NCBI GenBank assembly: GCA_035541435.1
Contig: DATKNL010000002.1
Span: forward strand, 3,962-67,961
Direction of reading: 5' to 3'
Length of the DNA stretch: 64,000 nucleotides
DNA from: Minisyncoccota bacterium
GTDB lineage: Bacteria > Patescibacteriota > Minisyncoccia > UBA6257 > 2-01-FULL-56-20
Position 1 is the first letter of the stretch, and each line of letters opens with the position of its first letter. Shown here one piece after another: positions 11,261 through 29,990 of this stretch. The notes under the pieces are model-generated. The model did no database searches and was not told the origin of the DNA. It saw only the letters and a list, made by a program, of their open reading frames with translations. The position numbers and the translations under genes are program-made.

Positions 11261-11629
11261 CTATCCCCAAGCGATAACTCTTGTTCTGACAACCCTGTCG
11301 GGAGCTATCTCTTTGTTCCTGCTTGATAGGCTGTTCGTGATAGCGCACACGAGAAGCCATTTGCTGGATGGATGCGTCTCAAAAAATTCTGCGCTCGCGT
11401 CACAGACAGGCCAGCAGAGAAATGCCTGCTGGGGCCATCGTACAACGCCGGGGATGCTGGGCAAATGAACAGCGTCACGGTCGGGCGTGAGCAGGTAGAC
11501 GGTACGCGTTCCCATATCTGCCATCTCTGAAGAGGCGATGGGGTAAATCCAAATTTTGTCGCACCACTTTCCACGCAATCGTTCCTTGCGTTGTTCTTTT
11601 GTTTCCTTTTGGACCGCGGCCTTTTTCAT
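11261..11629 (-). CDS. Hypothetical small protein (122 aa) in lower-GC segment
   Basis: AGGAGG RBS 8 nt upstream of ATG at 11629; sits between rnpB terminator and its own terminator. Confidence 0.35.
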   Translation of the reverse strand: MKKAAVQKETKEQRKERLRGKWCDKIWIYPIASSEMADMGTRTVYLLTPDRDAVHLPSIPGVVRWPQQAFLCWPVCDASAEFFETHPSSKWLLVCAITNSLSSRNKEIAPDRVVRTRVIAWG

Positions 11630-11665
11630 GCCATCGTCCTCCTGCAAAAAAGATATCACATCGTC

Positions 11666-11694
11666 AAAAACAAAAACAGCCCCTTTCGGAGCTG
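11666..11694 (-). terminator. rnpB terminator
   Basis: ACAGCUCCGAAAGGGGCUGU hairpin + UUUUGUUUUUG on minus strand. Confidence 0.7.
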
Positions 11695-11696
11695 TC

Positions 11697-12113
11697 TTCG
11701 TGCAGGCAATCCATAAACCGGATTCTGTCGGCGGCGCTTGCGCGACGCGGACGGCCATTTGTCTGGGTCCTTGATCGCTCGCGGACTCGTGCGGCACTCC
11801 CCTGCGCCTTTCGGCGCACGGGCACGGCCTTGCACCCCGTAAGAGTTTTGCCGTTTCACTTCCGCTTTCCTATCCCTATGGCGGAATTGAGCCTTCAAGC
11901 TTGGGATCGGGCTCCCCCGGCGCTTTCGCGCCTTGCAACGGATGAGCATCCGTGGGGCGTCACTGCTCGCATCTCGTGCCTTGCGGCAGGCAGCCGTTAG
12001 CTGCTACGTTCCCTGCGGACCGTGAGGCCCGGCAGGATGGTGTCCGGATTTTCCTCCCCTCGCCCGCTCCGCTTGCGCGGAACCGGCGAAGAGCGGCCGT
12101 CTGGATTGCCGTT
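11697..12113 (-). ncRNA. rnpB: RNase P RNA, bacterial type A
   Basis: Minus-strand RNA reads GGCAAUCC...AGGGGAGGAAAAUCCGGACACCAUCCUGCC (P4 5' strand, cf. GGAAAGUCCGGGCUCCAUAGGGCA), ...GUGAAACGG..., ...CGACAGAAUCCGGUUUAUGGAUUGCC (cf. ACAGAACCCGGCUUAUCGG); P1 pairing GGCAAUCC/GGAUUGCC. Confidence 0.8.
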
Positions 12114-12233: not shown

Positions 12234-12463
12234 AGCACCACATCATCTTCCTTCAGGAGCGAACGAGTTGGGACGATCAAGCACACCCTACCATCAACGG
12301 ACCGCTGACGAAGAGGCGCCCGAGGAACCGCGACGGCGGAGCGACGAGCGATCGTCGCAGCGAGCCCTGCCCGCGCAGGAAACCCAGCCTCCTTTAGAAC
12401 GGGATCTGCGATAACCCGAAACGCCCCCTTGCGGCCACGTCATCTGACGCGGCCGCTTTTTTA
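12234..12463 (+). ncRNA. Candidate ~230-nt small RNA of unknown family
   Basis: Promoter at 12200-12227 and terminator hairpin gcggccacg..cgcggccgc + TTTTTTAT at 12431-12463; no RBS/credible ORF. Confidence 0.4.
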
Positions 12464-12487: not shown

Positions 12488-13108
12488 TCAGCGATGGAAT
12501 CCGAGGTCTGCTGGATTGAAGTCGCCCGATATGCGGCCGACCGATCCCCCGCGCTTTTCGAAATCCTCGCGCAGTTTCGAAACCTCGTCGGCGAGCGCCA
12601 CGGTCTCCTGGGGCAGCTCCTTGCGCTTGATGCGCCACTTGGACCAGTACTCGATGACAAGCTTGCTGTCGCCGAACACGTGCTTCGCGCCCTGCGCCTG
12701 CGCGATCTCGAGCGCATAACGGAGCGCGAGCAGCTCGCCGTAGTTGTTGGTGGCTTCGTCGTTGCCGACGAGATGCTTGCCGAAGCGGTTGAGTTCGGAC
12801 CGCGGAACGGCCTTGTGCAGCAGGTCCTTGCCGCGCTCGTCGGTCACGCTCACTTCGACGCCCGCGCCACGGCCGGTGCCGGCGTCGAAATAGATGCCCG
12901 GCTCGAGTCGCGGGGCCCGTTTGGCCTCATACATGGCGCCGCCCGCAAGCCAGGCTTCGGCGTCATCTTTCGAATCGAACGCCTTGAAGCGGGCGCCGGT
13001 CCTGCCCGACACTTTCGCTTCGGTCTCCTTCCAGTCGGTCGTGATGCCCGTCAGGTTCCCGTCGGGAACGAAATAGGCGTAATATTTCTGTTTTTTGGCC
13101 GGACTCAT
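12488..13108 (-). CDS. rnhA: Ribonuclease HI with N-terminal hybrid-binding (Cauli_VI-like) domain
   Basis: YYAYFVP...KAFDSKDDAEAWL HBD; catalytic DEDD context YFDAGTG, GNDEATNNYGELLAL, FGDSKLVI. Confidence 0.7.
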   Translation of the reverse strand: MSPAKKQKYYAYFVPDGNLTGITTDWKETEAKVSGRTGARFKAFDSKDDAEAWLAGGAMYEAKRAPRLEPGIYFDAGTGRGAGVEVSVTDERGKDLLHKAVPRSELNRFGKHLVGNDEATNNYGELLALRYALEIAQAQGAKHVFGDSKLVIEYWSKWRIKRKELPQETVALADEVSKLREDFEKRGGSVGRISGDFNPADLGFHR

Positions 13109-14070
13109 GAATGTGGCGCGGCGTTCAGGGCTTCGACCATCTTCGGAACCGCCTGATCCACGGCTTTGCGCGAGGTGAAGTTGACCGCACCAGCGCCCCA
13201 GTGTCCCCCGCCGCCGAACCGCGCGAGGAGCGCGCCGAGGTTCACGTTGCCGGGCTTCATCCAGGCGTTGTCGCCGATGCCCACATGGAACTGGCCGTCC
13301 TTCTTCGTGATGCGGATCGCATAGCGGATCTTCGGCTTCAGAAAATAAGGGGCGTAGCGCAGCGTCTCGACGTTCGCCTTCTCAAGGTCGATGACCGACA
13401 CGCGGCCTGCGATCTTCAGGTTGCGCCGATAGAACGCGAGCGCTTTCATGTTCTTCGCGCGCAGCTTCGTGACGACGCGCGCGATCCGCGGCTGCTTTGC
13501 GATCATTGGGAGCGGCTTCGTGGCAAAATCCTCGATCATCCGCTGCGCGGTCGCAGGGTTCTTGCGCGTTTCGTCGATGAAGGCGTCGAGCTGCGTCTCG
13601 ACGGTGGTGAGATAGATCGTTTCGCGCGGCGTTCGGTAGCGCGCGCCATCAACGATGTCGGCCCGCTTCACAAGGTCCCCGATGAGGCGCGGCGGCTTCC
13701 AGCCGAAGTTCTTCTTGAGCGATTCGAAAACGAGCCGCGTGCATGAGACATAGGACGGATCAAGCACCCGCTCGCGGGACGGACGATAGGATTTCTTCCA
13801 GGACTCCTTCTTGAACGTGGTCGGATGGTGGTCGAACCACCAGGCTGCGGCCGGATGATAAAAAAAGTCGACGACGACGGCCGGATTCCGCCTGCCGGCG
13901 AACAGCCGGTGCCGCGCGAAAAAACGCTCGCTCATCCATTGGTCCTGCAGGTCGAAATCGACGGCGGCAAAATGGCCAACGTCGTCCCCCCGGCTGCGCA
14001 GGAACGCCGTCATGACGGCCGCCGACGCCCGTCCGTCGAAATCGTTATGAAAATAGATGTCGTAAAGCAT
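13105..14070 (-). CDS. DHH-DHHA1 family phosphoesterase (NrnA-like nanoRNase/pAp phosphatase)
   Basis: HNDFDG (motif I), FDHHP (DHH), GGGGHWGAGA (DHHA1 GGGH); start at internal ATG 14070. Confidence 0.6.
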   Translation of the reverse strand: MLYDIYFHNDFDGRASAAVMTAFLRSRGDDVGHFAAVDFDLQDQWMSERFFARHRLFAGRRNPAVVVDFFYHPAAAWWFDHHPTTFKKESWKKSYRPSRERVLDPSYVSCTRLVFESLKKNFGWKPPRLIGDLVKRADIVDGARYRTPRETIYLTTVETQLDAFIDETRKNPATAQRMIEDFATKPLPMIAKQPRIARVVTKLRAKNMKALAFYRRNLKIAGRVSVIDLEKANVETLRYAPYFLKPKIRYAIRITKKDGQFHVGIGDNAWMKPGNVNLGALLARFGGGGHWGAGAVNFTSRKAVDQAVPKMVEALNAAPHS

Positions 14071-14107
14071 CGATAACAATGATGATCCCGTCCGCTGGGT
14101 GCGTGCG

Positions 14108-15331
14108 CTATTTCTTGACGAACGCCTCCTTCGGGGACAGCGAGCTAGCGCGCCGGGCCGGAATGAAGCCGGCCGCAAATCCGATGAGCCCCGAAACGGC
14201 GATAACGACGAGTATAAACCAAAGCGGCGAAACGAACAACGCGAACGCGACACCGCCGTAACGTTCCGCGATGAGGCTCACGACGAAGTTGAAGAGCTGC
14301 CCGATGCCGACGCCAAGCCCGATGCCAACGACGCCGCCCGCAAGGCCCATGACGACCGCCTCGGTGAGGAAGAGCATCTTCACGTCCTTGTCGGTCGCCC
14401 CGAGCGCCTTCATGACGCCCACCTCATAGGTCCGCTCAAGGAAGCCGACGATCATCGTGTTGAACATGCCGATCGCCGACACGATGAGGGCCGCAATGCC
14501 GAACACGCCGAGGATGATCGTGATGATGTTCGTCACCTGCTGCGCCTGCCGCACGAGGTCGATGTGGGCCGAGATGATGAACCCCTGGCCGAGAAGCGAG
14601 CTCCTCAAATTTGTGAATGTCGCGTCGTTCTTCGCTTCGACATAGACCTCCTTATAGAAGGGAGGCGCTTTGGGGAGCGAATTGGCAGAAACGACGACGG
14701 TCGGCGAAAGCGTATCGTTTGCCACGATGCCGGTGACCGGCAGGAGGCTGGTCGAGGTCACGTCGTATGCCGGACCGTTGTTCGGTCCGGGATAGAATGC
14801 CGTGACAAGGACCTGCTTCCCGATCGTCGACGGGGTCGATGAGAGGTTGAGCAGCCTGAGCGCCTGGCTCGAGATCACGACGCCGCCCGACGGTCCGAAC
14901 GGCTTGCCGATGTCGGGAAGGGAGCCGGAAAGGTCGAAATAGTCGGGATCGGCGATGTCGACCAAAACCAGGCCCGACGAGCCGCCGGGCATCGACACCG
15001 CCCCCGAGAATTCGGCGACCGGGCTCACGACGGCGACATCCGCCATCGCCTTCACCTGGTCGACCTTCGCCTGGTCGATCACGATGTTGCTGTCGGACGG
15101 ATAGGTCGCGCAGCACGTGATGAGCGACTGGGGCGTCGTGATGAGCTTGCCGAGCAGGATGTCCTGCAGGCCGTAGCCCAGCGAGACAAGCACCACGACC
15201 GTCGCGATGCCGACCGACGTGCCGAGGACGGTCAGGACGGTGCGCAGCGGCTTCGCGGAAAAGCTCCTGATCGAAAGGCGGACGAGGTTCCTGAAGCCGA
15301 GCTCGTGCGGGATGACGTCGTGGTGTTCCAT
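14108..15331 (-). CDS. ABC transporter permease, FtsX/MacB-like with large extracytoplasmic domain
   Basis: N-terminal TM, ~220-aa periplasmic region, C-terminal 3 TM FtsX fold (ERTYEVGVMKALGA). Confidence 0.75.
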   Translation of the reverse strand: MEHHDVIPHELGFRNLVRLSIRSFSAKPLRTVLTVLGTSVGIATVVVLVSLGYGLQDILLGKLITTPQSLITCCATYPSDSNIVIDQAKVDQVKAMADVAVVSPVAEFSGAVSMPGGSSGLVLVDIADPDYFDLSGSLPDIGKPFGPSGGVVISSQALRLLNLSSTPSTIGKQVLVTAFYPGPNNGPAYDVTSTSLLPVTGIVANDTLSPTVVVSANSLPKAPPFYKEVYVEAKNDATFTNLRSSLLGQGFIISAHIDLVRQAQQVTNIITIILGVFGIAALIVSAIGMFNTMIVGFLERTYEVGVMKALGATDKDVKMLFLTEAVVMGLAGGVVGIGLGVGIGQLFNFVVSLIAERYGGVAFALFVSPLWFILVVIAVSGLIGFAAGFIPARRASSLSPKEAFVKK

Positions 15332-15334
15332 GGC

Positions 15335-16654
15335 TTAGCGGTGCGACGGCGCCGTCGGCGCGAATGACGACAGCTGGGGATGCCCTTCCTTCAGGATGAA
15401 TTCCAGGCGCTCGCAGATGCGGTGCGCCGTCGGCGTCGCGAAGCCGAGTCCGGCGCGGCTCCGCGGCAGGCTGAGGATTTCGGAAACGTGCTCCGGGGTG
15501 ATGACGCCGCGGATCCGCTCGTTGAGCACCTCGTCAAGCTGCATGACCTGCAGGCTGTTCAGCACGCCGTGGTAGTCCTCGAGAAGCCACCGCCTCAGCT
15601 TCTCGATGTCGTCTTTGAGCGGCGCCTCGCGGTCGGTCTCGAGCTGATGATAGATGTCGCCCACCGTGCGGCGTTCAGCGATCACGTCCTCGATGATGGA
15701 ACTCACCTTGGCGGCCTTCTGCCGCCACAGTCCCAATCCCCCCTCGCGCCACGGACGGTCGAGCACGTTCCGGAAGACGTCCGCGTCGATCTTGCCGTCG
15801 AGCCGCTGGGCAAGGAAGAATTCGAACCGCTTCAGCTCGGGCGCGGCATAGCCCCTCAGGAACAGGTTCGAGAACGAATGCGCGGCAAGCTGGTGCTCGG
15901 ACATCCCGGGCGACAGCCGGCCGTACATCGTCTTCGAAAGCGCCTGCTGCACGGCCTGCTCCCCCACGCCGTCCTCCTTGGTGACGACGCCGTCCTTCAT
16001 ATAGAAAATCTTCTTCGCGTCGCGCAGGCTCCACGCCTCATGGGTCACCATGATGATCGTGCGGCCGTCCTTTTCGTTGAGCTCCTTCAGGAACTGCAGC
16101 ACCGTGTCGGCGTTCGATGAATCGAGGTTGCCGAGCGGCTCGTCCGCGATGATGATCGGCGGGTTGTTGGCGAGGGCGCGCACGATGCCCACGCGCTGCT
16201 GCTGGCCGCCCGAAAGCTCGTCGGGATAGCGGTCGGCAAGGTGCGCGATGTTCACGCGCTCAAGCAGCTTCATCGCCTCGCGCTTCGAACGGTCCTCGGA
16301 CACGCCGAGGAAGGACATCGGCAAGATGACGTTCTGCACGACGGTGAGCGACGGGATGAGGTTGAACTGCTGGAAGATCATGCCGACGCCGATCTGCCGG
16401 TAGATGGCGAGCTCCTGCCGCGTGAACGTCGATATGTCGCGGCCGTTGATGACGATCCTGCCGTCCTGACCCGGCTCGATGCCCGAAATGAGATAGAGCA
16501 GCGTCGTCTTGCCGGACCCCGACGATCCGAAGAAGGCCGCGTATTCCCCGGGGTAGATGTCGCACGAAACGTCCTTCAGCGCGTGATATTCGTTCGGCTT
16601 GCCGCGCTCGTACCAAAAATTGACGTTCTCGAGCCGGATGATGGGTTCGCTCAT
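15335..16654 (-). CDS. ABC transporter ATP-binding protein (MacB/LolD-like) with ~210-aa C-terminal extension of unknown function
   Basis: Walker A GSSGSGKTT, signature LSGGQQQR, Walker B IIIADEP, H-loop; extension residues ~225-439. Confidence 0.8.
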   Translation of the reverse strand: MSEPIIRLENVNFWYERGKPNEYHALKDVSCDIYPGEYAAFFGSSGSGKTTLLYLISGIEPGQDGRIVINGRDISTFTRQELAIYRQIGVGMIFQQFNLIPSLTVVQNVILPMSFLGVSEDRSKREAMKLLERVNIAHLADRYPDELSGGQQQRVGIVRALANNPPIIIADEPLGNLDSSNADTVLQFLKELNEKDGRTIIMVTHEAWSLRDAKKIFYMKDGVVTKEDGVGEQAVQQALSKTMYGRLSPGMSEHQLAAHSFSNLFLRGYAAPELKRFEFFLAQRLDGKIDADVFRNVLDRPWREGGLGLWRQKAAKVSSIIEDVIAERRTVGDIYHQLETDREAPLKDDIEKLRRWLLEDYHGVLNSLQVMQLDEVLNERIRGVITPEHVSEILSLPRSRAGLGFATPTAHRICERLEFILKEGHPQLSSFAPTAPSHR

Positions 16655-17094
16655 GGGTGGACGGCCTTCCCGACGACGTTGTTGATGATCTCGACCAGGT
16701 CCTTCGGCATGGTCTGCTCCTTGTGGATATAGCCGTCGGCCCCCTTCGCTTCGGCCTCCTCCTGGAATTCCTTCTCCGAATGGCCGGAGAAGATCAGCAC
16801 CTTGATGTCCTTCGTCGCAGGATCGCGCTTGATCCGCTCGAGGAAGGCGAAGCTGTTCTCGGGATCGATGATCGTTCGGTCCTCCACCTTTTTCGGGATG
16901 GCGAGGTCAAGGAAGACGACGTCGGGCCGCGACGCCGGATCGGCGACGGCCTTTTCGGCGTCGTCGAGGTTCTGGGCTACCGCGAGGTCGCAGGTGCGCT
17001 CGAACCCGTAAATCCAGAAGACGTCGTGAAAATAGATTCTGATGATCTCGTCGTCGTCCACCAGGAGTATTCGCGTCTTGGGGTCATGGCTCAT
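16651..17094 (-). CDS. Stand-alone response regulator receiver domain protein
   Basis: ILLVDDDE, VVFLDLAIP, KVLIFSG; start 1 nt after the giant gene stop. Confidence 0.7.
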   Translation of the reverse strand: MSHDPKTRILLVDDDEIIRIYFHDVFWIYGFERTCDLAVAQNLDDAEKAVADPASRPDVVFLDLAIPKKVEDRTIIDPENSFAFLERIKRDPATKDIKVLIFSGHSEKEFQEEAEAKGADGYIHKEQTMPKDLVEIINNVVGKAVHP

Positions 17095-17095
17095 G

Positions 17096-20000
17096 TCACT
17101 TTTGGATGTTCCGCATGAACTGGAACGTGTTCTCGAAATTGTTCAGGATGACGTCGAGGATCGACTGCGACTGCTGCGAGACGATCATCGTCTGCGGCGG
17201 GAATGCCGCGGTGTTCGAGGCCTGGTCGGTCGACGCGACGCGCACGCGGTACACGGCGCCCGGCACGAGGTTCGGCACGATCACCACGTGGCTTGTGACG
17301 AAGCTCGACAGGTCCTGCACCGTATGGGCATAGGTCGACGTGGGGCCCCCTACCCCCTGGTCGTATTGTACCACGGAGTTCGCCGGCTTATCGGTCATCC
17401 AGCCGACGATCGCCTGGGCCACGTTCGGCGACTGCGGGTCGATGATCGTCTGGATCCGGATGTTCGAGATGACGGGCGCCACCGTGTCCTTCGTCGTCCT
17501 CACCGTTACCGGGCTCGCGGCGGCGATCAGGTTGCCGTTCGCCGTATTGCCCGAGACGGTCACGAGATAGGTCGACGCCGGGGTCAGGTTCTGCACCGTC
17601 ACGCTGTGCACCGTGACCAGCGCGTCGTCGGTGATCGTCTGGGTGACGCCCGTCTTCGCGTCGCGATACTGGACGATCGAATTCGTGTCGCCGTCGGTCG
17701 TCCACGAGACCTGGAAGCTTGTCGGCGTGACTTTCGATACCTGCGGAACCACCTTGGCCGCGGCCGTGATGAAGGTGACGTCGCCGCTCTTGCCGAAGAC
17801 GCCCGGGATGCTGAACGATTCCGCCATCGCGTGATAGAGCGTGTTCGGCTGCAGGCCCGTGACCGTCACGGTGTGGGTCGCCACCTTGGTATTGACCTCC
17901 GACGACTGGGCGTCATAGGGATTGGCGGTCGATGTCGCGCCCGTGAAGTCGGCGTCGGTCGCATAATAGACCACCGAATAGGATTTGATGTTGGTCGTCC
18001 AGCGCACGGTCGCGCTGTTCTGGCCGACGTCGGTCACGACGGGCTGGCTGAGGAACGGGGGCACGAGGCTCGGGAGGGCCGAGGCGATGCTGTTCTCGAT
18101 CTCCTGCTGAAACTCATAGGCGTTCGCGATCGTGGTCGAGGACGAGAGCGAGGCCTCGGTGAGGTACTGGGTCGCGAAGGTCGCGTCGGTGGTCGACGCC
18201 TCGTTGCCGGACCGGTCGATCGCCCGTACGTAGAAATGATAGGTCGTGCCCATGACGAGCCCCTTCGCCGAGATGGTGTGGACCGTGCCGAACGCGCGGT
18301 CGGCGGCGGCTAACCCGTAATCGGTGCTCGTGCCGTAATCCACGAAGCCGACCGCCGGCTCGTCGGTAATGAAGCTCACGGTCGCGTCGAACGGCGTCGT
18401 CGTGGCGACGACGTCCGTGATCTTGGGCGGCACGGTGTCGGCCGCGCTCGTCACGACATAGCCGGTCGAATAGACGTACTGCGTCTTCGGGGTGTCCTGC
18501 GTCGCGAACGAATAATCGCCCGACACGCCCTCGCTGCCGGCGCTCGAGTCGGACCGGACGCGGTAATGATAGGTGGACGCCGGCACGAGGTCGGACAGGG
18601 TGACCGCATGATAGGTGCCGAGCGTGGGGTCGAGCGCCGTGCTCGACGGATAGGTCCCGGTCGCCGAACCGTAGTCCACCTGGCTCGTGCCGTTGCGGTC
18701 GGTGCTCCAGAGGATCACCGCCGTCGACGTGCCCGTGATCGGCGCGCTCACCCCCGTGATCGTCGGCGGACGGTGGTCGGTCGTCGTGAACTGGTAATAG
18801 TGGCTGAAGTTGTTGTCGAGGTGCGGAACGCCGTTCGCGTCGTCGGACTCGAGGTAGAACTCATAGGTCGTTCCCGGCGCAAGGCCGTCGATCACGACCG
18901 AATGCTGGAAGGGCGCCGTGCCGCCGACGAGCGTCGACGTGCCGACGTCCATGACCGCGCCTCCCCCGCTCGCCGGGACGAAATAATGGACGATCGAATC
19001 CGAATCCATCGACGTCTGCCAGCCGATGATCGCCTCGGTGTCGCCTGCATAGGTCGTCGTCACGCCCGTGAAGACCGGCGCGAGGGTCGTGAACGTCTGC
19101 TCGGTCGACGTCGCCTCGTTGCCCGCCGCATCCTTCACGTGGATGACGTAGTAATAGGTCGTTTCTGCCGCGAGGTCCGAGAGGAAGATCTCGTGATTCG
19201 CCGCGAGCGTCGACGTGGCGACGCTCGCCGTGTAGGCTTCGGTCGACGTGCCATAGAGGATGGTTCCGTCGGTGAACTTGCTGGTCGACCAGGTGATGGC
19301 CGCCGAATCGCCCGAGACGAACGGCACGGCGACGTTCGAAATGAGCGGCGACTGGGAATTCGTGGTCGTGAACGAATAGTAGGCGCCCGCGCTGTTGTCG
19401 ATCGCGACATCGCCGATGCCGTCGGTCGACTGGACGTAGAAATAATAGGTTGTGGACGGCGTGAGGCCGCCGAGGGTTATCGCGTGATGGAACGGCGCCG
19501 CGCCTCCGACGGACGAGGCGTTGCCGGTCGACGTCGCGAAGGAACCGGGCGTCGTCGCATAGAAGACATAGCCGTTCGCATCGACGTTCGTGTCCCACGC
19601 CACCGTCGCGCCGATATCGGACGGCGAAGACGTGACGTCCGTGATGACGAGCGGCGGAGCGACCGGCGCGAGGGTCGTGAACGTCTGCTCGCCCGACGTG
19701 GCGGCATTGCCGGCGTTGTCGACCGACTTCGCCACGTAATAATAGGTCGTCGAAGCGGCGAGGCCGGCGAGCGACGCAACATGCGATGCCGTCATGGGCG
19801 ACGTGTCGCCAAGGGCGGTCGATGACGCATAGATGCCCGATGCCGTTCCATAGAGGACCTGCGAATTGGAAAGCTTGTCCGTCGTCCACGAGACCGTTGC
19901 CACCGTCTGGCTTTGGGCCGAGGCGCTCACGCCCGTGATGACCGGCTTCGCGCTGTTCGTCGTCGTGAACTGGTAATATTGGCCGCTATTGCGGTCGATC

Positions 20001-23000
20001 GTCGTGTCGCCGTACGGGTCGACCGACTGCACGTAATAATAGTAGGTCGTCGACGGCGTGAGGCCCGTGATGACGAGGGCGTGGGACGTCGTCTGGGTCG
20101 AGCTCACGGCCGATCCGCTGATCGTCGAGGTCGATGTCCCGAAATAGACGCCCGAGTCGCCGTTCGAACCGGTGGTCCAGGCGACCGTCGCGGTGAAGTC
20201 GGTCGTCGTTGCCGAGACTCCCGAGATCGAGGGGCCCGGCGGACTGAGCGTCGTCACGGTGGAGGTGGCGAAGCTCTCGTTGCCGAACTGATCGACGGCG
20301 TGGATGCGGTAATAATAGAGCGTCGTCGGCGTGAGACCGGTGATCGACTGCGAGTGCGAGGTCGTGTAGGAATTGTCCAATGTGGTCGATGCGCCATAGG
20401 ACGTCGTCGTGCCATAGGCGATCTGCGACGTCGCGCCCTTGTCCGTCCCCCAGGTAATCGTCACGTTGCTCTGGCCGACGGCCGGGGTCTGGATGCTCGA
20501 GATCGCGGGCGGAACCGTGTCTTTGGCGGTCGTGAAGGAATAATAGGCGCCCCCGTTCGAATCCTTCGTGCCGTTTCCATATTGGTCGGTCGAGCGGACG
20601 TCGAGATAATAGGTCGTGGACGGCGTGAGTCCGGAAAGCGTCACCGAATGGTTCATGGCGAGCGTCGTGGTTCCGATCGTCGAATAGGGCGAGAACGCGA
20701 GGCTCGTCGAATAGTCGACGTTCGCATCGGCCGCCTTGTCGGTCGCCCACGTGATGGTCGCGGTCGAGGTCGCAACGCCGCTCACCGTCGTGCTCGTGAT
20801 CACCGGCCCGAACTGCAGCGTTGCGAACGACTGGCCGGACGACGTCGCGACGTTGTTCCCCGAATCCGTCGACTGCACATAGAAATAATAGGTGGTCGAC
20901 GCGGCAAGGTTGTTGAGTGTCAGGTCGTGGAACGTGACATAGGACGAGGTCGGCCCCGCGACGGAGTTCGGATAGGTCCCGGATGCGGTCCCATAGAAGA
21001 GGGCCGAGTTCGCCGGCTTGTCGGTCACCCAGTTGATCTCGGCGGAATTCTGCGACGGGTTCGCGTTGATCGACGAGATCTGCGCCGGATGGCTGTTCGT
21101 CGCCATGAACGTGTAATAGGCGTAGTTGTTGTTGTCGACGGACGTGTTGCCGATCGAGTCGACCGACTGCACGTAGAAATAATAGGTCGTCCCCGGCACG
21201 AGGCCCGTGATGTTCGCCGTGTGGACATAGGGTCCCGATCCGCTTTCGAGTGCCGGCGCCGAGCTTGCGTTGCCCTGCGCAAGCTGGGCCGACGAAGCGG
21301 CATAGAACACGAATCCGGTCGAATCGACGTTCGTGTTCCACGTCACGATCGCCGACGTATCGAGCGATGACGTCGCCACGTTCGAAATGGACGGTCCCCC
21401 GCCGCGGCCGGTCGGCGTGATGAACACCTGCGGCGAGAAGGCCGAAACGTTGCCCTTGGTGTCGGCGACCCTGACCTTGTAGTAATAGGCGATGTTGTTT
21501 GGCATGAGTCCCGTGTCGCCGAAATAGGGATTGGTCGTCGTCGCGTACGGGGCGTAGCTGCCCGACGTCGACCGCCAGATGTCATAGCGAAGGAAGTTCG
21601 ACGCCGTGCTTGTCGCCCACGAAAGGTAATCCGAATAGACGCCCGTATAGACGTTCGACGTGTCCTTCACGACGATGCCCGTCGGCGCGGGAGGCATGGT
21701 GGCCGTAAAGGCATAGTCGTTGCCGTAATTGTCGACGACCTCATAGGACAGCGTCGGCGACGTCGACGAGGAGAAGATCCACGATATCGTCCCGGTCGCG
21801 AATGAGCTGCTGAGGGTCTGCCATTGGCCGCTCGTCGGATTGAGGCCGTCGGCTGCGGCCGACGAGCTGCCGTTCGCAAACCGATACTTCACGGAACCGT
21901 TGCCGAGGAATGCGAACGAAAGCGCTCCCTGCGAGATGTCGGCGACGATCGTCTGTCCCGTCGCCCACGTCGATACGTCTCCGTCGGTGTCGGTCACCTT
22001 CATGCGATAGAAATAGGTCTGCCCCTGCACGGCGCCGTTGTCGGTAAAGGAATTCGACGACTGGTTGGTGCTCGTATAGATCGAAGCGAACGCACCGCCG
22101 GACGAACGGTCAAGCTCATAGGACGCAAACGCGGCTCCGGGCGCATTCGCATAGGACGACCACGAGATGATGTTCCCCGACACGGACAGGTTCTGGGGCG
22201 ACTGCGGGGCCGCGTTCGAAACGACGATATCGTTGCCATAGACGTCCTGCACCTCGGCATAGGCCGTCAATCCCGCCCCGAGCACGAGCGACTTGGTGCC
22301 GCTTGCCGTCCCGGCCGGCGCCATGGTCCACGGCACCGATGACGAGGGCGTCGAGGACGAGATGCTGGTCGTCGCGAACCGGTACATGAACCCGCTCGCA
22401 TCCGCAAAGGAATAGGTCAGGGTGTTCGAAGCGATGTTCAGGTTGGTGAGCGAGGCGGTCGGCGGCTGCGTGTCGATCGTGAACGCCGAACTGGTCGCCG
22501 TCGCCGTGTTGTTCGCAAGCTGATGGTCGTCGAGCGTCACGCGGATCTGCGAGCTTGTCGCATAAGCTGACCCGATGCCGGGTTCCGCAGCGGGATTCCA
22601 GATGACGGTCTGGTTGATGAACGAGGTCGTCGCAAGCACGATGTCGGACGTCGCATTCGCCGTCACGAACTGCGTCATCGTCTGCCATCCCGATCCGACA
22701 TTATATTGATAAGTCGGCGTCACGGTTCCCGTCGCATGCCCGTTCGCGGCCCCGTCCGTCGTATAGTCGATGTCCTTGAAGCGATAGGTGAACGTGACAT
22801 CGCCCACATGGCTCGCGTCGGTCGTCGTCGTGTTGTCCGCCTGCGTGATGCCCGTTCCCCCGCCATAGGACGCGTCGAAGGCCGGCGCGGAGTTGACAAC
22901 GTACTTCACCGTAACACCCTGAACGGCTGGCGCGGTCACGCCGTTCGAGGTCTCGGTGACCTGATACTGCCACCACCGGGAATTCGATTTCAGTGCCGCA

Positions 23001-26000
23001 GGGATGGCGGATCCGCTGCACGAAACCGAAGGATACGCCGAGAAGACGACGTCGGCACCCACGTCGGTCGTTCCGAAGCTCTGGTTCGGGAACGCTCCCG
23101 CGCTCGCGGCATAGACGCCGGCACTGCCCGTAAGCACCCCGTTCGTAATCGGGAAAGCAGCCGAGCCGCTCGGCCAGGAATTTGGGTCGGCGTCATTGTA
23201 GGAGACGACATAGTTCTTGCCCGCTGTAATGGTGAGCGGCGTCGCCAGGTTCTGCTGCTGCCATCCTGACGCCGATTCGCCGGTGAATGTCGTCGATGCG
23301 AGCAGGACATGGCTCGTGGCGTCCCAGATGTTTCCGACGTGGGTTCCCGTGTTGCCGGCCAGCTTATAGAAACGGACCGCGGTGATCTGCCCCGCTTGCG
23401 CGCTCGAAAAGGTCGTGCCGAGCTCGGTCCAGCCGTACGTTATGCCTCCATTCGAAAAAGTCTGATTCGTATGGACGCTCGATGTCGCCACAGCCGCCGT
23501 CGTACAGCCGGCCGTAGATTCGGTGAAGTTCGACCAGGTCGTTCCAAGGCCCGCCGAGGACGTTGCCGACGAGATGGCGACGGTGACGCCGTTTCCCGTC
23601 GAGGTCGTCTCGCTCCAATCGACTTCGCCGATAACATCGGACGGATCGGTCGAATCGTACGGCTGGGACTTCAGCGTGCCGAGACTCGCGTACCGAGACG
23701 GCGTATAGAACCGCTCGGAAATGTTGCTGTAGGTGCTGAGGTCGGTTGAATCGTAAAGGAAGCCGATTGTGCCCGTACTCGAAATCATGGGGGTGTAGCT
23801 GCCGTCATCCTGGATGTAAAGGAGGGTACTCGAAGCGATCGTGGTCGAAGCCGACCACGTCTGCCCCCCGTCGGTCGATTGCTGCATGAGGAGCAGATGG
23901 GATGTCTGGTTGATATAGGAAAGGATGAGCGTGCCGCTCGAATATGCGAGTGAGGACAACCGCGGATTCGTCGGCGTTACGAAGCTTGCCGACGTCGGCG
24001 TCGAGGTCCCGCTGCCGGTATAGATATTGAGGCGGTTCTGACCGTTGTAGTCGTAAACCACATAGGTCTTTCCGGTGCCGTCCACGATGATCGAGGGGCT
24101 CATATGGCTGAGGCCGTCCGCCGAACTTAGGGCGACCTGCGAACTCCAGGAGGTTCCGCCATTCGTCGAATAGGCAAACATGGGATAGAAAGAAACCCCG
24201 TCAAGCTCCTTCGAGGAATAGACGAGATAGAGGATGTTGCCGGGGCCTTCCGCCAGTGCCGGCACTTGCATCGCGTTGCCCGTGCCCGAATAGTTGATCG
24301 TTCCGGCGAGGGACCAGGACTGCCCGTTGTTGGTCGACTTATAGATGTCGATGGCCGTCGTGCGCGAGGTCGCGAGGTAATAGTTGCCGCTGTAGGCACC
24401 CCGCGTGAGGCCAATGCCGTTTGCGTTGTAGTTGTATCCCGACGTGGTTGCCACGGCAACAAACGACCACGTTGACCCGTTGTTCAGCGAATAGCGGGTC
24501 ATTACGCCCATATACGGGTTGACCTCTTTCGCGGTATAGGCAATAACGATCGATCCGTTATTGCCGGCGATTTGGACGGTATTCACCCCGACCGCTGACG
24601 GGACGAACATGCTTGTCGTGCTTGCCGTGAGGGCGACGGGCGTACCGCTCGCCGAATTGATGTATTCGAGGTTGTTGACGAAATGGTTCGGGTCGGCATC
24701 GAGGGACAGATAGGCAGCATGCACCGTGCCGCTCGAATCCTGGAAGGAATAAACGTTGGATGCGGTGGGGTTGCCCCAGAGCTGGGAGACGTCAGTGCGG
24801 GCGCTCCAGGTCGCCCCGCTCGACGTGGAGTAGCGGTACGCTATGTTGAAAAGCGACGGATTGAATGCCTCTGATTGATCCGTCACGTGAATCTTGCCGC
24901 TTGCATCGACCCCAGCGGCAGGAAAACGATCGCTGGAATTGCTGAGGTTGACGCTCGATGTAGCGCACAGGGTGTTCCAGTTGTCACAATAATTGAGGGC
25001 TCCTGCGGCCCATTGATAGACGAACCCGATCTTGCCGAGACCTTCTATGAACGCGCTGGTTCCGTTGGTGATGGTGTTCTGCGAGCTCGTGACCGGCGCG
25101 CTCCACGAGGAATAGTTCGTCGAGGTCACGAAGTATGAAAACGAGGTTATGTTGTTGATGTAATTTATGTAAGCGGTATTCGAGGCATCTACGAGCATCT
25201 GGCTGACATAATAATTGGTATTCACGGGTCCATTCGTGATGTCGATCCGGTTGTGCCAGTTATTGGAGTTCCTGTAGGCGATCTGGGAGAGCGATGACGA
25301 CGCCTCGAATGATCCGTAGGAAATATGAATGATGCCGTTCGGAGCGATCGCGACGCTGGGATTGGCAACGTTGCCGCCGGTCGTCGATGTCGTGACGTCG
25401 GTTCGTCCTGACCACGATTGCCAATTCGACGACGAAGATGCCGATCGCAGCACGACATTGAGCAACGCGGTGCCTGAAAATTCCTGTGAGGTATAAGCGA
25501 TATAGACGGCGTTGTTCGCGTCGACCGCGATGCTCGGCGAAGCCGCACTCTTGTTCGCGGTTGCCACCACCACTGGAGCCGACCAGACCTGCCACGAGGT
25601 CGAGGCAAGCGCGTAACGGTACGACACGTTCGTCGCCCCGGATTCGGTCGAATCATAGGCGAGATGGACGTTGCCGGCGCCGTCGACCGCCATCGAAAGG
25701 TGGTTATAGGTGAGGCCCGACGTCGCGTTGGTGATGCAGACCAGCGAGTTCCAGTTCTGCGAATCGCGATAGACAAGGTTGTTGAACCCGTTACACTCGC
25801 CGGAATTATAAACCACATGAACGATGCCGCTCGTCGAAATGACCATCGCATTGTAGCCGGTACCGGCCGACCACAGGAGCTTCGGAACGTTCTGCGTCAG
25901 GTCGATGCGGCTCCCGAGCGATGCCGTCGTCGTTGCAAGCGACAGGTTCGTCGACGTCGTGACGCTTGTCGCGCTCGCGTATTGGGTCGATGTCGGTGCG

Positions 26001-26143
26001 GGACTTGCGAGGGTTCCCGCCGTCTGTCCCCCGCTCCACGAGCTCTGGGTGAAGGTGTATGTCGTCGCCTGCGCGACGCCGAACACGCAGAACGACAGCG
26101 CGCCTACGATGAGGCCAACGATAAGGCCGCTCCGTTCGTGCAT
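17096..26143 (-). CDS. Giant secreted surface protein (~3015-3069 aa): signal peptide, Asp-box/BNR repeat region, then >=15 tandem Fn3-like ~100-aa repeats
   Basis: Signal peptide MHERSGLIVGLIVGALSFCVFGVAQA; Asp-boxes SLNNGSTWS, STNNGQSWS, STNGGTSWS, STDGGQTWS; repeats with ITWxTDK...YGT...LxGLxPxTTYY(Y/F)xVxSxDxxGN. Start could also be 26170 or 26305. Confidence 0.8.
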   Translation of the reverse strand: MHERSGLIVGLIVGALSFCVFGVAQATTYTFTQSSWSGGQTAGTLASPAPTSTQYASATSVTTSTNLSLATTTASLGSRIDLTQNVPKLLWSAGTGYNAMVISTSGIVHVVYNSGECNGFNNLVYRDSQNWNSLVCITNATSGLTYNHLSMAVDGAGNVHLAYDSTESGATNVSYRYALASTSWQVWSAPVVVATANKSAASPSIAVDANNAVYIAYTSQEFSGTALLNVVLRSASSSSNWQSWSGRTDVTTSTTGGNVANPSVAIAPNGIIHISYGSFEASSSLSQIAYRNSNNWHNRIDITNGPVNTNYYVSQMLVDASNTAYINYINNITSFSYFVTSTNYSSWSAPVTSSQNTITNGTSAFIEGLGKIGFVYQWAAGALNYCDNWNTLCATSSVNLSNSSDRFPAAGVDASGKIHVTDQSEAFNPSLFNIAYRYSTSSGATWSARTDVSQLWGNPTASNVYSFQDSSGTVHAAYLSLDADPNHFVNNLEYINSASGTPVALTASTTSMFVPSAVGVNTVQIAGNNGSIVIAYTAKEVNPYMGVMTRYSLNNGSTWSFVAVATTSGYNYNANGIGLTRGAYSGNYYLATSRTTAIDIYKSTNNGQSWSLAGTINYSGTGNAMQVPALAEGPGNILYLVYSSKELDGVSFYPMFAYSTNGGTSWSSQVALSSADGLSHMSPSIIVDGTGKTYVVYDYNGQNRLNIYTGSGTSTPTSASFVTPTNPRLSSLAYSSGTLILSYINQTSHLLLMQQSTDGGQTWSASTTIASSTLLYIQDDGSYTPMISSTGTIGFLYDSTDLSTYSNISERFYTPSRYASLGTLKSQPYDSTDPSDVIGEVDWSETTSTGNGVTVAISSATSSAGLGTTWSNFTESTAGCTTAAVATSSVHTNQTFSNGGITYGWTELGTTFSSAQAGQITAVRFYKLAGNTGTHVGNIWDATSHVLLASTTFTGESASGWQQQNLATPLTITAGKNYVVSYNDADPNSWPSGSAAFPITNGVLTGSAGVYAASAGAFPNQSFGTTDVGADVVFSAYPSVSCSGSAIPAALKSNSRWWQYQVTETSNGVTAPAVQGVTVKYVVNSAPAFDASYGGGTGITQADNTTTTDASHVGDVTFTYRFKDIDYTTDGAANGHATGTVTPTYQYNVGSGWQTMTQFVTANATSDIVLATTSFINQTVIWNPAAEPGIGSAYATSSQIRVTLDDHQLANNTATATSSAFTIDTQPPTASLTNLNIASNTLTYSFADASGFMYRFATTSISSSTPSSSVPWTMAPAGTASGTKSLVLGAGLTAYAEVQDVYGNDIVVSNAAPQSPQNLSVSGNIISWSSYANAPGAAFASYELDRSSGGAFASIYTSTNQSSNSFTDNGAVQGQTYFYRMKVTDTDGDVSTWATGQTIVADISQGALSFAFLGNGSVKYRFANGSSSAAADGLNPTSGQWQTLSSSFATGTISWIFSSSTSPTLSYEVVDNYGNDYAFTATMPPAPTGIVVKDTSNVYTGVYSDYLSWATSTASNFLRYDIWRSTSGSYAPYATTTNPYFGDTGLMPNNIAYYYKVRVADTKGNVSAFSPQVFITPTGRGGGPSISNVATSSLDTSAIVTWNTNVDSTGFVFYAASSAQLAQGNASSAPALESGSGPYVHTANITGLVPGTTYYFYVQSVDSIGNTSVDNNNYAYYTFMATNSHPAQISSINANPSQNSAEINWVTDKPANSALFYGTASGTYPNSVAGPTSSYVTFHDLTLNNLAASTTYYFYVQSTDSGNNVATSSGQSFATLQFGPVITSTTVSGVATSTATITWATDKAADANVDYSTSLAFSPYSTIGTTTLAMNHSVTLSGLTPSTTYYLDVRSTDQYGNGTKDSNGGAYYSFTTAKDTVPPAISSIQTPAVGQSNVTITWGTDKGATSQIAYGTTTSYGASTTLDNSYTTSHSQSITGLTPTTLYYYRIHAVDQFGNESFATSTVTTLSPPGPSISGVSATTTDFTATVAWTTGSNGDSGVYFGTSTSTISGSAVSSTQTTSHALVITGLTPSTTYYYYVQSVDPYGDTTIDRNSGQYYQFTTTNSAKPVITGVSASAQSQTVATVSWTTDKLSNSQVLYGTASGIYASSTALGDTSPMTASHVASLAGLAASTTYYYVAKSVDNAGNAATSGEQTFTTLAPVAPPLVITDVTSSPSDIGATVAWDTNVDANGYVFYATTPGSFATSTGNASSVGGAAPFHHAITLGGLTPSTTYYFYVQSTDGIGDVAIDNSAGAYYSFTTTNSQSPLISNVAVPFVSGDSAAITWSTSKFTDGTILYGTSTEAYTASVATSTLAANHEIFLSDLAAETTYYYVIHVKDAAGNEATSTEQTFTTLAPVFTGVTTTYAGDTEAIIGWQTSMDSDSIVHYFVPASGGGAVMDVGTSTLVGGTAPFQHSVVIDGLAPGTTYEFYLESDDANGVPHLDNNFSHYYQFTTTDHRPPTITGVSAPITGTSTAVILWSTDRNGTSQVDYGSATGTYPSSTALDPTLGTYHAVTLSDLVPASTYHYRVRSDSSAGSEGVSGDYSFATQDTPKTQYVYSTGYVVTSAADTVPPKITDVVATTTPFDATVSFITDEPAVGFVDYGTSTDYGLAAADRAFGTVHTISAKGLVMGTTYHFYVRAIDRSGNEASTTDATFATQYLTEASLSSSTTIANAYEFQQEIENSIASALPSLVPPFLSQPVVTDVGQNSATVRWTTNIKSYSVVYYATDADFTGATSTANPYDAQSSEVNTKVATHTVTVTGLQPNTLYHAMAESFSIPGVFGKSGDVTFITAAAKVVPQVSKVTPTSFQVSWTTDGDTNSIVQYRDAKTGVTQTITDDALVTVHSVTVQNLTPASTYLVTVSGNTANGNLIAAASPVTVRTTKDTVAPVISNIRIQTIIDPQSPNVAQAIVGWMTDKPANSVVQYDQGVGGPTSTYAHTVQDLSSFVTSHVVIVPNLVPGAVYRVRVASTDQASNTAAFPPQTMIVSQQSQSILDVILNNFENTFQFMRNIQK

Positions 26144-26346
26144 TCGGTATGAGCTGGTGTTCGGTGACATGCCGATCCGTATCCGTATAACTATCCTTTC
26201 CTTCATTGTAGGCCCGGAACAGCCGCTTAAAGCGAAAACTGTGGAAAAACGGGCCTTATGGGCGAAGCTTGGATGCTGAATCCTGCTAAACATTCTGGCA
26301 AACATTTCTGTTTGCCATATGTTTTTATTGAATTATCGGCTTTTCG

Positions 26347-27507
26347 TTATCTTCGCTTAAGTACCTCGATGCCTGGCAGCTTTTGTCCGGCAAGATAGTC
26401 GATCATGGCGCCCCCGCCCGTTGACACAAAATCGAAACGGCTGTCGAACCCGTATTTTTTCAGGAACATGACGGTTTCGCCGCCGCCCGCGACGCGGAAC
26501 GCCTTCCTGTTCCCAATAATGTCTTTTACGATGCTGATGGTTCCCTTGGCGTATCGCTTCTTCTCGATCAGGCCGAGCGGTCCGCTCCATACAATCGTCC
26601 GGGCAGCCGCTATTTTTTTCGCGAACGCGGCGGCCGTTTTCGGGCCGAGGTCGAGGATGGCGTCGTCCTTCCAGACGAAATCAACCGGCACCGAGATTTT
26701 TCGTGCCGTCGACGTCGCTGAGACGATCCGTTTGATTTCGGCGACGCTCTTCGGATCCTTGTCGCGCATCGATTTCTTCACGTCGACGCCGCGCAGAGCG
26801 AGTACGGTGTTCGCCGATCCTCCGCCGAGCAAAATCGTATCGGCTTTCTTTGCGAAAAACTTTATGACGCCGAGCTTGTCCGCCGCCTTCGCGCCGCCGA
26901 GGATGAGCGCGAGCGGATGCTTGGGATCAACCATCGCCTTGCCGAGCGAGACGATCTCCTGCTCGAGCTCGAATCCGGCATAGCTCGGCAGGAATGTCGT
27001 GACCGCATCGACCGATGCGTTGGAACGGTGACAGACGGCGAACGCGTCGTTTACATAGAACGTGCCGAGCGATGCGAGCTGTTTCGCGAGCGCGCGGTCG
27101 TTCTTCTCTTCGCCGGGCAGAAACCGCAGGTTGTCGAGCAGGAACACCGATCGCGCAGGCGCGTCAGCGACTTCGTGACGGATATCCGTGAACCTGAAAT
27201 GGTTTACGAACCGGACGGACCCGCCGGCGATCGCGCGACGGCCGAGCAGCTTCGTGAGATGCACGGCGTTCGGCCTGAGGCTTAATCCTTTTTTAACGTT
27301 CTTCGGGACGCCGTTCACGAGCATCACGCCCTCGGGCCTCCCCTTGTGGCTCACAATGACGATTTTGCAACCGTTCTTTAATAAGAATTTTATGGTCGGC
27401 AGGACCGCGCGCATGCGCCAGTCGTCTTCCGTGTTAAAATCGAGACGCAAGAGCGCCGTACCGCTCACGGCATCCTTTTGGGCCGTTCTTAAATAATGGA
27501 TGGGCAT
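26347..27507 (-). CDS. pgk: Phosphoglycerate kinase
   Basis: N-terminal RLDFN, CKIVIVSHKGRP and C-terminal ISTGGGA-like motifs. Confidence 0.85.
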   Translation of the reverse strand: MPIHYLRTAQKDAVSGTALLRLDFNTEDDWRMRAVLPTIKFLLKNGCKIVIVSHKGRPEGVMLVNGVPKNVKKGLSLRPNAVHLTKLLGRRAIAGGSVRFVNHFRFTDIRHEVADAPARSVFLLDNLRFLPGEEKNDRALAKQLASLGTFYVNDAFAVCHRSNASVDAVTTFLPSYAGFELEQEIVSLGKAMVDPKHPLALILGGAKAADKLGVIKFFAKKADTILLGGGSANTVLALRGVDVKKSMRDKDPKSVAEIKRIVSATSTARKISVPVDFVWKDDAILDLGPKTAAAFAKKIAAARTIVWSGPLGLIEKKRYAKGTISIVKDIIGNRKAFRVAGGGETVMFLKKYGFDSRFDFVSTGGGAMIDYLAGQKLPGIEVLKRR

Positions 27508-27553
27508 ATCACCTATTATAGCCTATCGCCGGGACGCGCCCCGCCGGATACGC

Positions 27554-29944: not shown

Positions 29945-29990
29945 CAATTCATTCTATCACAGCGATCCGCCCGCGATCCGGCGCGGTCCG

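Follow-up and report, generated by a model that had tools for sequence, protein, structure and literature searches.

In this work we analysed a 64,000-nucleotide stretch of DNA from a Minisyncoccota bacterium (GenBank assembly GCA_035541435.1, contig DATKNL010000002.1, positions 3,962 to 67,961 of the forward strand; the whole stretch is called the window below), in which six genes follow one another closely on one strand: those for a giant surface protein, a stand-alone response-regulator receiver, the ATPase and the permease of an ATP-binding cassette (ABC) system, a DHH-family phosphoesterase and a ribonuclease H (RNase H). The original prediction had taken this run for a single, previously undescribed module. 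We find that it almost certainly consists of two independent units placed side by side and having separate evolutionary histories. Giant, receiver and ABC pair do form a conserved unit, here called the cassette, and that part of the prediction stands; synteny places the DHH enzyme and RNase H (DHH-rnh) outside it. The full explanation that we favour, in which the cassette is a receiver-gated ABC mechanotransducer acting on the giant and the two nucleases are bystanders, we judge to be likely. The window belongs to a metagenome contig (ENA ERZ27256510, k141_3760265) that NCBI lists under a Candidatus Paceibacterota metagenome-assembled genome. The six genes and their domains are as follows, in coordinates of the window.

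17096..26305, minus strand: open reading frame (ORF) of the giant surface protein, 3069 residues, with its probable start at M55 (position 26143).
17099..17578, minus strand: conserved C-terminal Fn3-like domain of the giant and its 25-residue tail SQSILDVILNNFENTFQFMRNIQK, from an alignment of 13 giants.
16651..17094, minus strand: stand-alone CheY-like receiver without an output domain (Pfam Response_reg, E=6e-13).
15335..16654, minus strand: ABC ATPase, 439 residues.
15977..16654, minus strand: nucleotide-binding domain (NBD) of the ATPase, MacB/LolD/FtsE subfamily (ABC_tran, E=7e-35).
15335..15979, minus strand: C-terminal extension of the ATPase, about 210 residues, with no Pfam match.
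14108..15331, minus strand: MacB-type permease (MacB_PCD at residues 31-244, FtsX at residues 276-400).
13105..14070, minus strand: DHH/DHHA1 phosphoesterase, 321 residues (from motifs, profile and fold).
12488..13108, minus strand: type 1 RNase H with a hybrid-binding domain (HBD; Cauli_VI/HBD, E=4e-10).

Key to this reading is synteny examined from both sides. On the cassette side, contexts were found through a metagenome scan with the ATPase extension together with look-ups of full-length homologues, and 17 distinct contexts were chosen by us among the best matches on long contigs (individual loci are cited by L numbers). In every one of the 17 the ATPase gene is followed by that of the permease; in 16 it is preceded by a receiver gene, and in 14 there is an adjacent giant, while DHH-rnh lie downstream in only four: the window, L009, L055/L093 and L011/L079, which make up one small clade. 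The giants that adjoin the trio of receiver, ATPase and permease are large proteins of Fn3/Pur_ac_phosph_N repeats, 1651-3069 residues in length, and giant and receiver are 1 nucleotide apart or overlapping in 6 contexts. The cassette recurs in Paceibacterota, in Doudnabacteria (the contig of L087) and in other Patescibacteria, in at least seven unrelated neighbourhoods, which include a type IV pilus cluster (L076/L081), the flank of mraZ-rsmH-ftsL (L078, L083), a set of Dsb genes (L089) and the vicinity of aminoacyl-tRNA synthetase genes (L091); the giant is divergent in L083 and L090 and convergent in L080. The clade of the window is represented by an 827-kb contig (L093; GTDB record OY970126.1, labelled 'chromosome: 1') with the order of the window, running from a VirD4-like gene through pgk, giant, receiver, ATPase, permease and DHH to rnh, after which come a gap where rnpB lies (mapped in L055) and a P-type ATPase. 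In L011 (8157-9979), as also in L079, the cassette is rearranged to giant-receiver-permease-receiver-ATPase, with a kinase and a third receiver before DHH.

The DHH protein keeps different company. Its 327 homologues come nearly all from Parcubacteria-type metagenome-assembled genomes, and in 74 loci taken from GTDB species representatives, each with as much as 10 kb of flanking sequence if its contig reached that far, we located the other proteins of the window by tblastn. The gene for phosphoglycerate kinase, pgk, lies upstream of DHH on the same strand in 56 of the 68 assessable loci, within 300 nucleotides in 41; the HBD-RNase H gene is immediately 3' of DHH in 32 of 61 assessable loci, and directly downstream in 28 of the 32 loci in which DHH identity is at least 42%. 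By comparison, receiver, ATPase and permease are present in only three of the 74 (L009, L011, L055). Whether the cassette is present (window, L055) or absent (L002, L006), the gene after rnh is that for RNase P RNA; pgk is the immediate upstream neighbour of the giant gene in both the window and L093. The conserved block is pgk-DHH-rnh-rnpB, with pgk as its upstream anchor and rnpB as its last member, and this fixed order appears to be specific to Parcubacteria. The outer members of the block in the window are these.

26347..27507, minus strand: pgk, phosphoglycerate kinase (Pfam PGK, E=1e-97).
11699..12112, minus strand: RNase P RNA, class A (RF00010, 73.5 bits, E=4e-22).

The RNase P RNA match at 11699-12112 covers the full model length at a score below the Rfam gathering score of 100, and was missed by a default scan; a 178-residue ORF at 11261-11797 that overlaps it is spurious.

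Other inserts lie between pgk and DHH in several loci, and the pgk|DHH junction therefore behaves as a variable slot, a recurrent insertion site. At this junction other Parcubacteria (L025, L035, L037, L047 and L048) carry one to three tandem genes, with products of about 560-630 residues that start with a conserved Zn-ribbon-like motif (CQNCK..F.IEP.DF.FYEKI.VP.PTWCPECR). In the clade of the window the slot is occupied by the cassette, so that DHH-rnh now follow the permease. The link of DHH-rnh to the cassette is a lineage-specific juxtaposition, and the two nuclease genes are probably co-transcribed with the cassette by read-through.

These observations bear directly on the single-module reading, in which a giant adhesin, an ABC machine and the hydrolysis of RNA/DNA hybrids and nanoRNA would serve one task, such as the processing of extracellular or imported nucleic acid. 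Its appeal lies in the tight junctions, in the failure to predict a terminator between permease and DHH, and in a gene order that the window shares with L009 and L055/L093 and, but for insertions, with L011/L079. All four junctions that had been claimed were borne out by direct reading of the sequence: giant and receiver are separated by 1 nucleotide (TGAcATG), receiver and ATPase overlap by 4 nucleotides (ATGA), ATPase and permease are 3 nucleotides apart (TAAgccATG), and DHH and RNase H overlap by 4 nucleotides (ATGA). Left unmentioned was a gap of 37 nucleotides between permease and DHH, counted with the DHH start at the ATG of the public gene call; this ATG, at 14070, is the true start, and the 382-residue ORF that begins at a GTG is an over-extension. 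The span first given for the run, 12488-17098, takes in just the stop codon of the giant, which reaches 26305. Close spacing is, however, found genome-wide: among 46 same-strand neighbour pairs in the window the gap is at most 3 nucleotides in 9 and at most 10 nucleotides in 19, and tight spacing alone is therefore a poor guide to function. Tight junctions are a genome-wide habit here and say little on function by themselves. A consensus scan for promoters and terminators, which predicted no terminator in the permease-DHH interval, gave counts within shuffled expectation and decides nothing. More telling are the 13 of 17 cassette contexts without DHH-rnh and the 71 of 74 DHH loci without the cassette, the parts never occurring together outside the one clade, and the fact that DHH-rnh retain partners of their own in pgk and rnpB. 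Furthermore, the nucleases look cytoplasmic as far as their sequences tell, and so could not meet an extracellular adhesin. We consider a single module highly improbable; the synteny check that had been proposed for it found no conservation of the six-gene arrangement beyond one narrow clade.

The predicted properties of the two nucleases fit poorly with a surface role. No Pfam or NCBIfam model matches the DHH protein; the DHH/DHHA1 motifs are kept in the family alignment, where H8, D10 and D12 are conserved at 90% or more and D68, H81-H82 and G288-G289-H290 are invariant (in the window protein, DFD at 10-12 and FDHH at 79-82). It had been called NrnA-like, and here the assignment shifts. Within the Protein Data Bank (PDB), the family profile strongly matches only PggH (7d62, E=7e-17), and the AlphaFold2 (AF2) model (predicted local distance difference test score, pLDDT, 95.8) likewise has PggH as its top fold match (E=8e-18, template-modelling score 0.73-0.79), ahead of DhhP, TM1595, NrnA and GdpP; NrnA chains reach E=0.13 by sequence profile and a template-modelling score of about 0.45-0.57 by fold. 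Some homologues have been named COG2404 'NrnB' by the Joint Genome Institute (JGI). The protein is therefore of the NrnB/PggH type and a probable 3'-5' exonuclease on dinucleotides or nanoRNA. Members of the NrnB family act on short RNAs as 3'-5' exonucleases (PMC12709177), and the short C-terminus past GGGH resembles that of the NrnB classes that prefer short RNAs (PMC12709177); from PggH the protein differs in having only 17-18% identity with it.

The RNase H identity given originally holds, through a Cauli_VI/HBD match (E=4e-10) and a weak match to Pfam RNase_H (18.7 bits, cutoff 25.8). The family profile finds the HBD of RNase H1 (E=3e-5) and the catalytic core of B. halodurans RNase H (E=1.4e-3), and D75, E125, D147 and D201 are invariant in 16 orthologues. 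Going by these matches, the protein is a type 1 RNase H with an HBD. Because the RNase_H score is under the Pfam cutoff, its DEDD core is read as divergent, but the catalytic residues are kept; it shares them with HBD RNases H of the B. halodurans type, from which it differs in this low core score. Neither nuclease matches a transmembrane or secretion-associated family in Pfam or NCBIfam (no signal-peptide or transmembrane predictor was run), and both look cytoplasmic. RNase H would cleave the RNA strand of RNA/DNA hybrids, leaving short oligonucleotides for the DHH enzyme to clear; we infer that the pair serves ordinary nucleic-acid housekeeping, unrelated to the adhesin.

Turning to the cassette, the identities first proposed for the receiver (Response_reg), the ABC ATPase (ABC_tran) and the FtsX/MacB-type permease (MacB_PCD plus FtsX) were upheld. 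The receiver of the window has the full set of expected residues (D13 and D14 of the acidic pocket, D62, S103 and K125), and D13, D14, S103 and K125 are invariant in 12 receiver orthologues. The ATPase NBD is best matched among NCBIfam models by LolD (193 bits), FtsE, DevA and MacB, and its PDB matches (MJ0796, YtrE, BceA, LolD and MacB) end at residues 224-243, beyond which a further 210 residues or so are conserved among relatives. This extension is predicted to be all-alpha (AF2 model, pLDDT 80.9) and contains an internal duplication, with two helical repeats in tandem, each some 70 residues long (hhalign, 93.8% probability, E=1.8e-7). It belongs to no Pfam family, giving scattered sub-threshold matches only, and no PDB fold match with E<1 was found; the MRS2-like match (in 9 of 22 members) and other weak Pfam matches, all sub-threshold, were set aside as uninformative, and a first impression of a helix-hairpin-helix motif was backed by no tool. 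Among 1.84 billion proteins a HMMER search gives 143 representative clusters with the extension, which sits C-terminally in full-length matches (about 415-460 residues); many matches are shorter and probably fragments.

The permease consists of one transmembrane helix, an extracytoplasmic domain of about 220 residues and three FtsX-type transmembrane helices, so that the large extracytoplasmic domain claimed earlier is indeed there, with a MacB_PCD match. Its best PDB sequence matches are MacB 5gko (E=7e-28, residues 18-404), YtrF 9o9x and 5xu1. Judged by both the NBD and the permease, the ABC pair is a member of the type VII ABC (MacB/FtsX/LolCDE) superfamily.

The giant itself begins with a Sec signal peptide ending in AQA, followed by a conserved module TTYTFTQSSWSGG, an Asp-box-rich region and DUF4082, and continues with some 18 Fn3/Pur_ac_phosph_N repeats, a conserved last Fn3 domain and the tail; Pfam recognises 13 stretches of Pur_ac_phosph_N, 5 of fn3 and DUF4082. 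The giants of the cassettes show 35-78% overall identity, and conservation is concentrated at their ends. They have a Sec signal peptide with an AxA site, after which a mature N-terminus ATYTFTQ..W.GG.TANTA.H is conserved in 8 of 9, and a near-invariant tail, Q.(E/Q)S(I/V).D(V/I)(I/V)..N(F/L)(E/Q).TF.(F/W), is present in all 13 aligned. A search of 1.41 Mb of related loci located the motif D[VI][IV]..N[FL][EQ].TF.[FW] solely at the C-terminal ends of cassette giants. The tail matched none of the known C-terminal sorting-signal models in NCBIfam, and the last Fn3 domain with the tail is a candidate docking or anchoring element. In the middle of the protein the number of repeats varies between relatives. 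The head of the giant is Asp-box-rich with DUF4082 in the window (23066-25918) and carries a glycine-rich ALK_LTK_GRD domain in L093 (2173-9561); it thus differs among close relatives while both ends stay constant. The alignments indicate that the giants are orthologous at both ends, and a changeable binding head carried on a constant stalk would be expected to give this pattern.

The conserved tail might also be taken for a secretion signal, which would give the ABC pair the export of the giant as its dedicated task, by type 1 secretion or in a MacAB-like way, and in L080 a second MacB-type system with a HlyD-family adaptor does lie beside the giant. The giant, however, starts with a canonical Sec signal peptide of its own, cleaved at an AxA site, the permease is of the 4-transmembrane MacB type and not of the 6-transmembrane HlyB type, and the cassette has neither an adaptor nor an outer-membrane factor. 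By established knowledge of their structures (review PMC5985334), MacB-family proteins have no transmembrane substrate channel, and Patescibacteria are not known to have an outer membrane. An efflux pump or type 1 exporter is therefore unlikely, given the absence of an outer membrane, the giant's own Sec signal and a 4-transmembrane permease without an adaptor, and we give a dedicated exporter very little credence. A MacAB-TolC pump was rejected in view of the absence of any HlyD-family gene from the cassette of the window and from 16 of 17 contexts, the exception, L080, having it in a separate MacB system. Type 1 secretion was rejected on the grounds of the 4-transmembrane MacB-type permease and the Sec signal peptide ending in AQA. 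In L080 the second system lies past the convergent giant (17020-20535, minus strand) and comprises the HlyD-family adaptor, a 239-residue ATPase, a 414-residue permease and a DUF7282 protein, such that the giant is flanked by two MacB-type systems.

A more serious alternative to a mechanotransducer acting on the giant is that receiver, ATPase and permease make up a general envelope system, such as an FtsEX paralogue concerned with the cell wall or with division, or an extruder of lipids or peptides, for which the giant is a frequent but uncoupled neighbour. This reading draws on the trios that occur without a giant (L085, L088, L092), on the frequent position of the trio beside the mraZ-rsmH-ftsL-PBP cluster, on the wide distribution of ATPases with the C-terminal extension (799 matches at E<1e-60, the best 120 of which are all 396-459 residues long), and on the nearest solved monoderm relative, YtrEF, which has been tied to cell-wall thickness in B. 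subtilis (PMC8060467). Yet 14 of 17 contexts have an adjacent giant although surroundings differ and three relative orientations occur, giant and receiver are 1 nucleotide apart or overlap in 6 contexts, and conservation is much higher at the termini of the giant than in its body, which an interaction surface would lead one to expect. In addition, L085 encodes a separate canonical pair of FtsE (218 residues) and FtsX (with FtsX_ECD), and FtsEX proper was rejected as an identity for the ABC pair, the ectodomain of which matches MacB_PCD and not FtsX_ECD and the ATPase of which has 439 residues against about 220-230 in FtsE. An envelope system uncoupled from the giant seems to us unlikely, though much less so than an exporter.

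The mechanism that we propose would make the ABC pair a type VII mechanotransducer comparable to LolCDE or to FtsEX and its partners PcsB, EnvC or RipC; mechanotransmission by type VII ABC systems has been reviewed (PMC5985334, PMC11627006). Cytoplasmic ATP hydrolysis would set the extracytoplasmic domain of the permease in motion, and this domain would engage one of the invariant ends of the giant and change its state, be it holding or anchoring, deployment or release. Since a receiver almost always stands immediately upstream of the ATPase, it is proposed as the gate of the motor, probably acting through the family-specific C-terminal domain, and would be phosphorylated by a sensor membrane kinase such as that encoded inside the cassette in the L011 variant. 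Taken by itself, this model of a mechanotransducer acting on the giant is tentative, and our confidence in it stays somewhat short of even.

Several observations weigh against this interpretation. What ties the giant to the ABC pair is gene neighbourhood only, and the choice of 17 contexts was neither exhaustive nor phylogenetically corrected. In 3 of the 17 (L085 from Wolfebacteria, L088 and L092) receiver, ATPase and permease have no adjacent giant, and the trio may have a more general role in the envelope. With regard to the receiver, two of 12 orthologues have Gly in place of the phospho-acceptor D62 (L087 6105-6551 and L088 9568-9996; FLGL and FTGL), which suggests that the proteins are phosphorylation-independent in some lineages, and no kinase was found among the larger ORFs of the 64-kb window; phospho-control of the receiver is therefore not universal. 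The L011 cassette, for its part, encodes a HAMP-PAS-HisKA-HATPase_c kinase and two further receivers. As to the independence of the two units, no fewer than three species of the clade of the window (window, L009, L055/L093) keep all six genes in synteny, and in this clade the nucleases may be co-expressed with the cassette.

Some features around the run are recorded here for completeness. Past the last protein-coding gene of the run there is one further element.

12431..12456, no strand assigned: G+C-rich hairpin with a 10-bp stem, read directly off the sequence.

This hairpin lies about 30 nucleotides past the rnh stop codon and continues on the plus strand as TTTTTTAT, which gives it the shape of an intrinsic terminator; no plus-strand gene leads into it, and it is absent from the output of the terminator scan. 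Directly upstream of pgk is a gene for a VirD4/TraG-like coupling ATPase of 797 residues (27554-29947, minus strand), and the same gene precedes pgk in L093, there with an N-terminal DUF8128 match; it probably belongs to the type IV secretion machinery of Patescibacteria, which has been described (PMC12102498). The G+C content is about 0.57 over 24000-28000, which covers the 5' part of the giant and pgk, against about 0.62 elsewhere.

In the full-text literature on Patescibacteria, Parcubacteria and the Candidate Phyla Radiation (CPR) we found no published description of the cassette; a paper on a Patescibacterium discusses very large FhaB/DUF2341 proteins as possible adhesins and does not mention it (PMC11809585). 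The earlier claim that the module is undescribed thus survives for giant, receiver and ABC pair, and lapses for the nucleases, which are ordinary housekeeping. Three features of the cassette appear to be new: the tandem-helical C-terminal domain of the ATPase, the fixed pairing of the ABC pair with a stand-alone receiver, and its repeated association with giants that form a family of Fn3-repeat proteins with conserved termini. A bolder and rather doubtful view is that the cassette represents an unrecognised class of inside-out surface machinery in Patescibacteria, in which a MacB-type ABC motor, controlled by a phospho-receiver acting via the new tandem-helical domain of the ATPase, grips a giant host-binding protein by its invariant C-terminal tail or its N-terminal module and thereby makes attachment switchable. 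ATP-driven movement would then deploy, tension or release the giant, and attachment of these episymbionts would be turned on or off. How ultra-small Patescibacteria attach to and leave their hosts is largely unknown, and giant proteins are usually listed without associated machinery, such that the cassette offers a concrete parts list for regulated attachment; if true, the model would extend the idea of ABC mechanical transducers (FtsEX, LolCDE, MacB) to a new class of partner. Together these results also illustrate that in streamlined genomes tight spacing can join unrelated units.

Among known systems, the best sequence matches of the permease lie in the MacB family, which the NBD also matches and which includes MacAB-TolC and, in monoderm bacteria, Spr0694-0695 of S. 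pneumoniae and YtrEF of B. subtilis. The cassette differs from MacAB-TolC in having no MacA/HlyD adaptor and no outer-membrane channel, and in encoding ATPase and permease as separate polypeptides; relative to MacB-family pairs in general it has an added C-terminal domain and a receiver, and a small-molecule substrate is not implied. A likeness in function only can be drawn to the LapA-LapG-LapD system of Pseudomonas, in which an inside-out signal decides whether a giant repeat adhesin is present on the surface, and a membrane protein relays that signal from a sensor domain in the cytoplasm to an extracytoplasmic domain. There is no homology between the two, Lap relying on cyclic di-GMP (c-di-GMP), a periplasmic protease and type 1 secretion where the cassette would use a receiver, an ABC motor and a Sec substrate, and we infer the resemblance as an analogy of control. 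In terms of proposed action the cassette would be most akin to FtsEX (with PcsB, CwlO, RipC or EnvC), with which it shares an ATPase of the FtsE/LolD/MacB subfamily and a 4-transmembrane FtsX-fold permease with a large extracytoplasmic domain, a monoderm setting and, in some copies, a position beside the division and cell-wall gene cluster, and in which an extracellular partner rather than a solute is moved, as we propose here. It departs from FtsEX in its MacB_PCD ectodomain, in the helical ATPase domain of about 210 residues that FtsE lacks and in its coupled receiver gene, and its presumed partner is an Fn3-repeat protein of 1650-3069 residues in place of a coiled-coil hydrolase.

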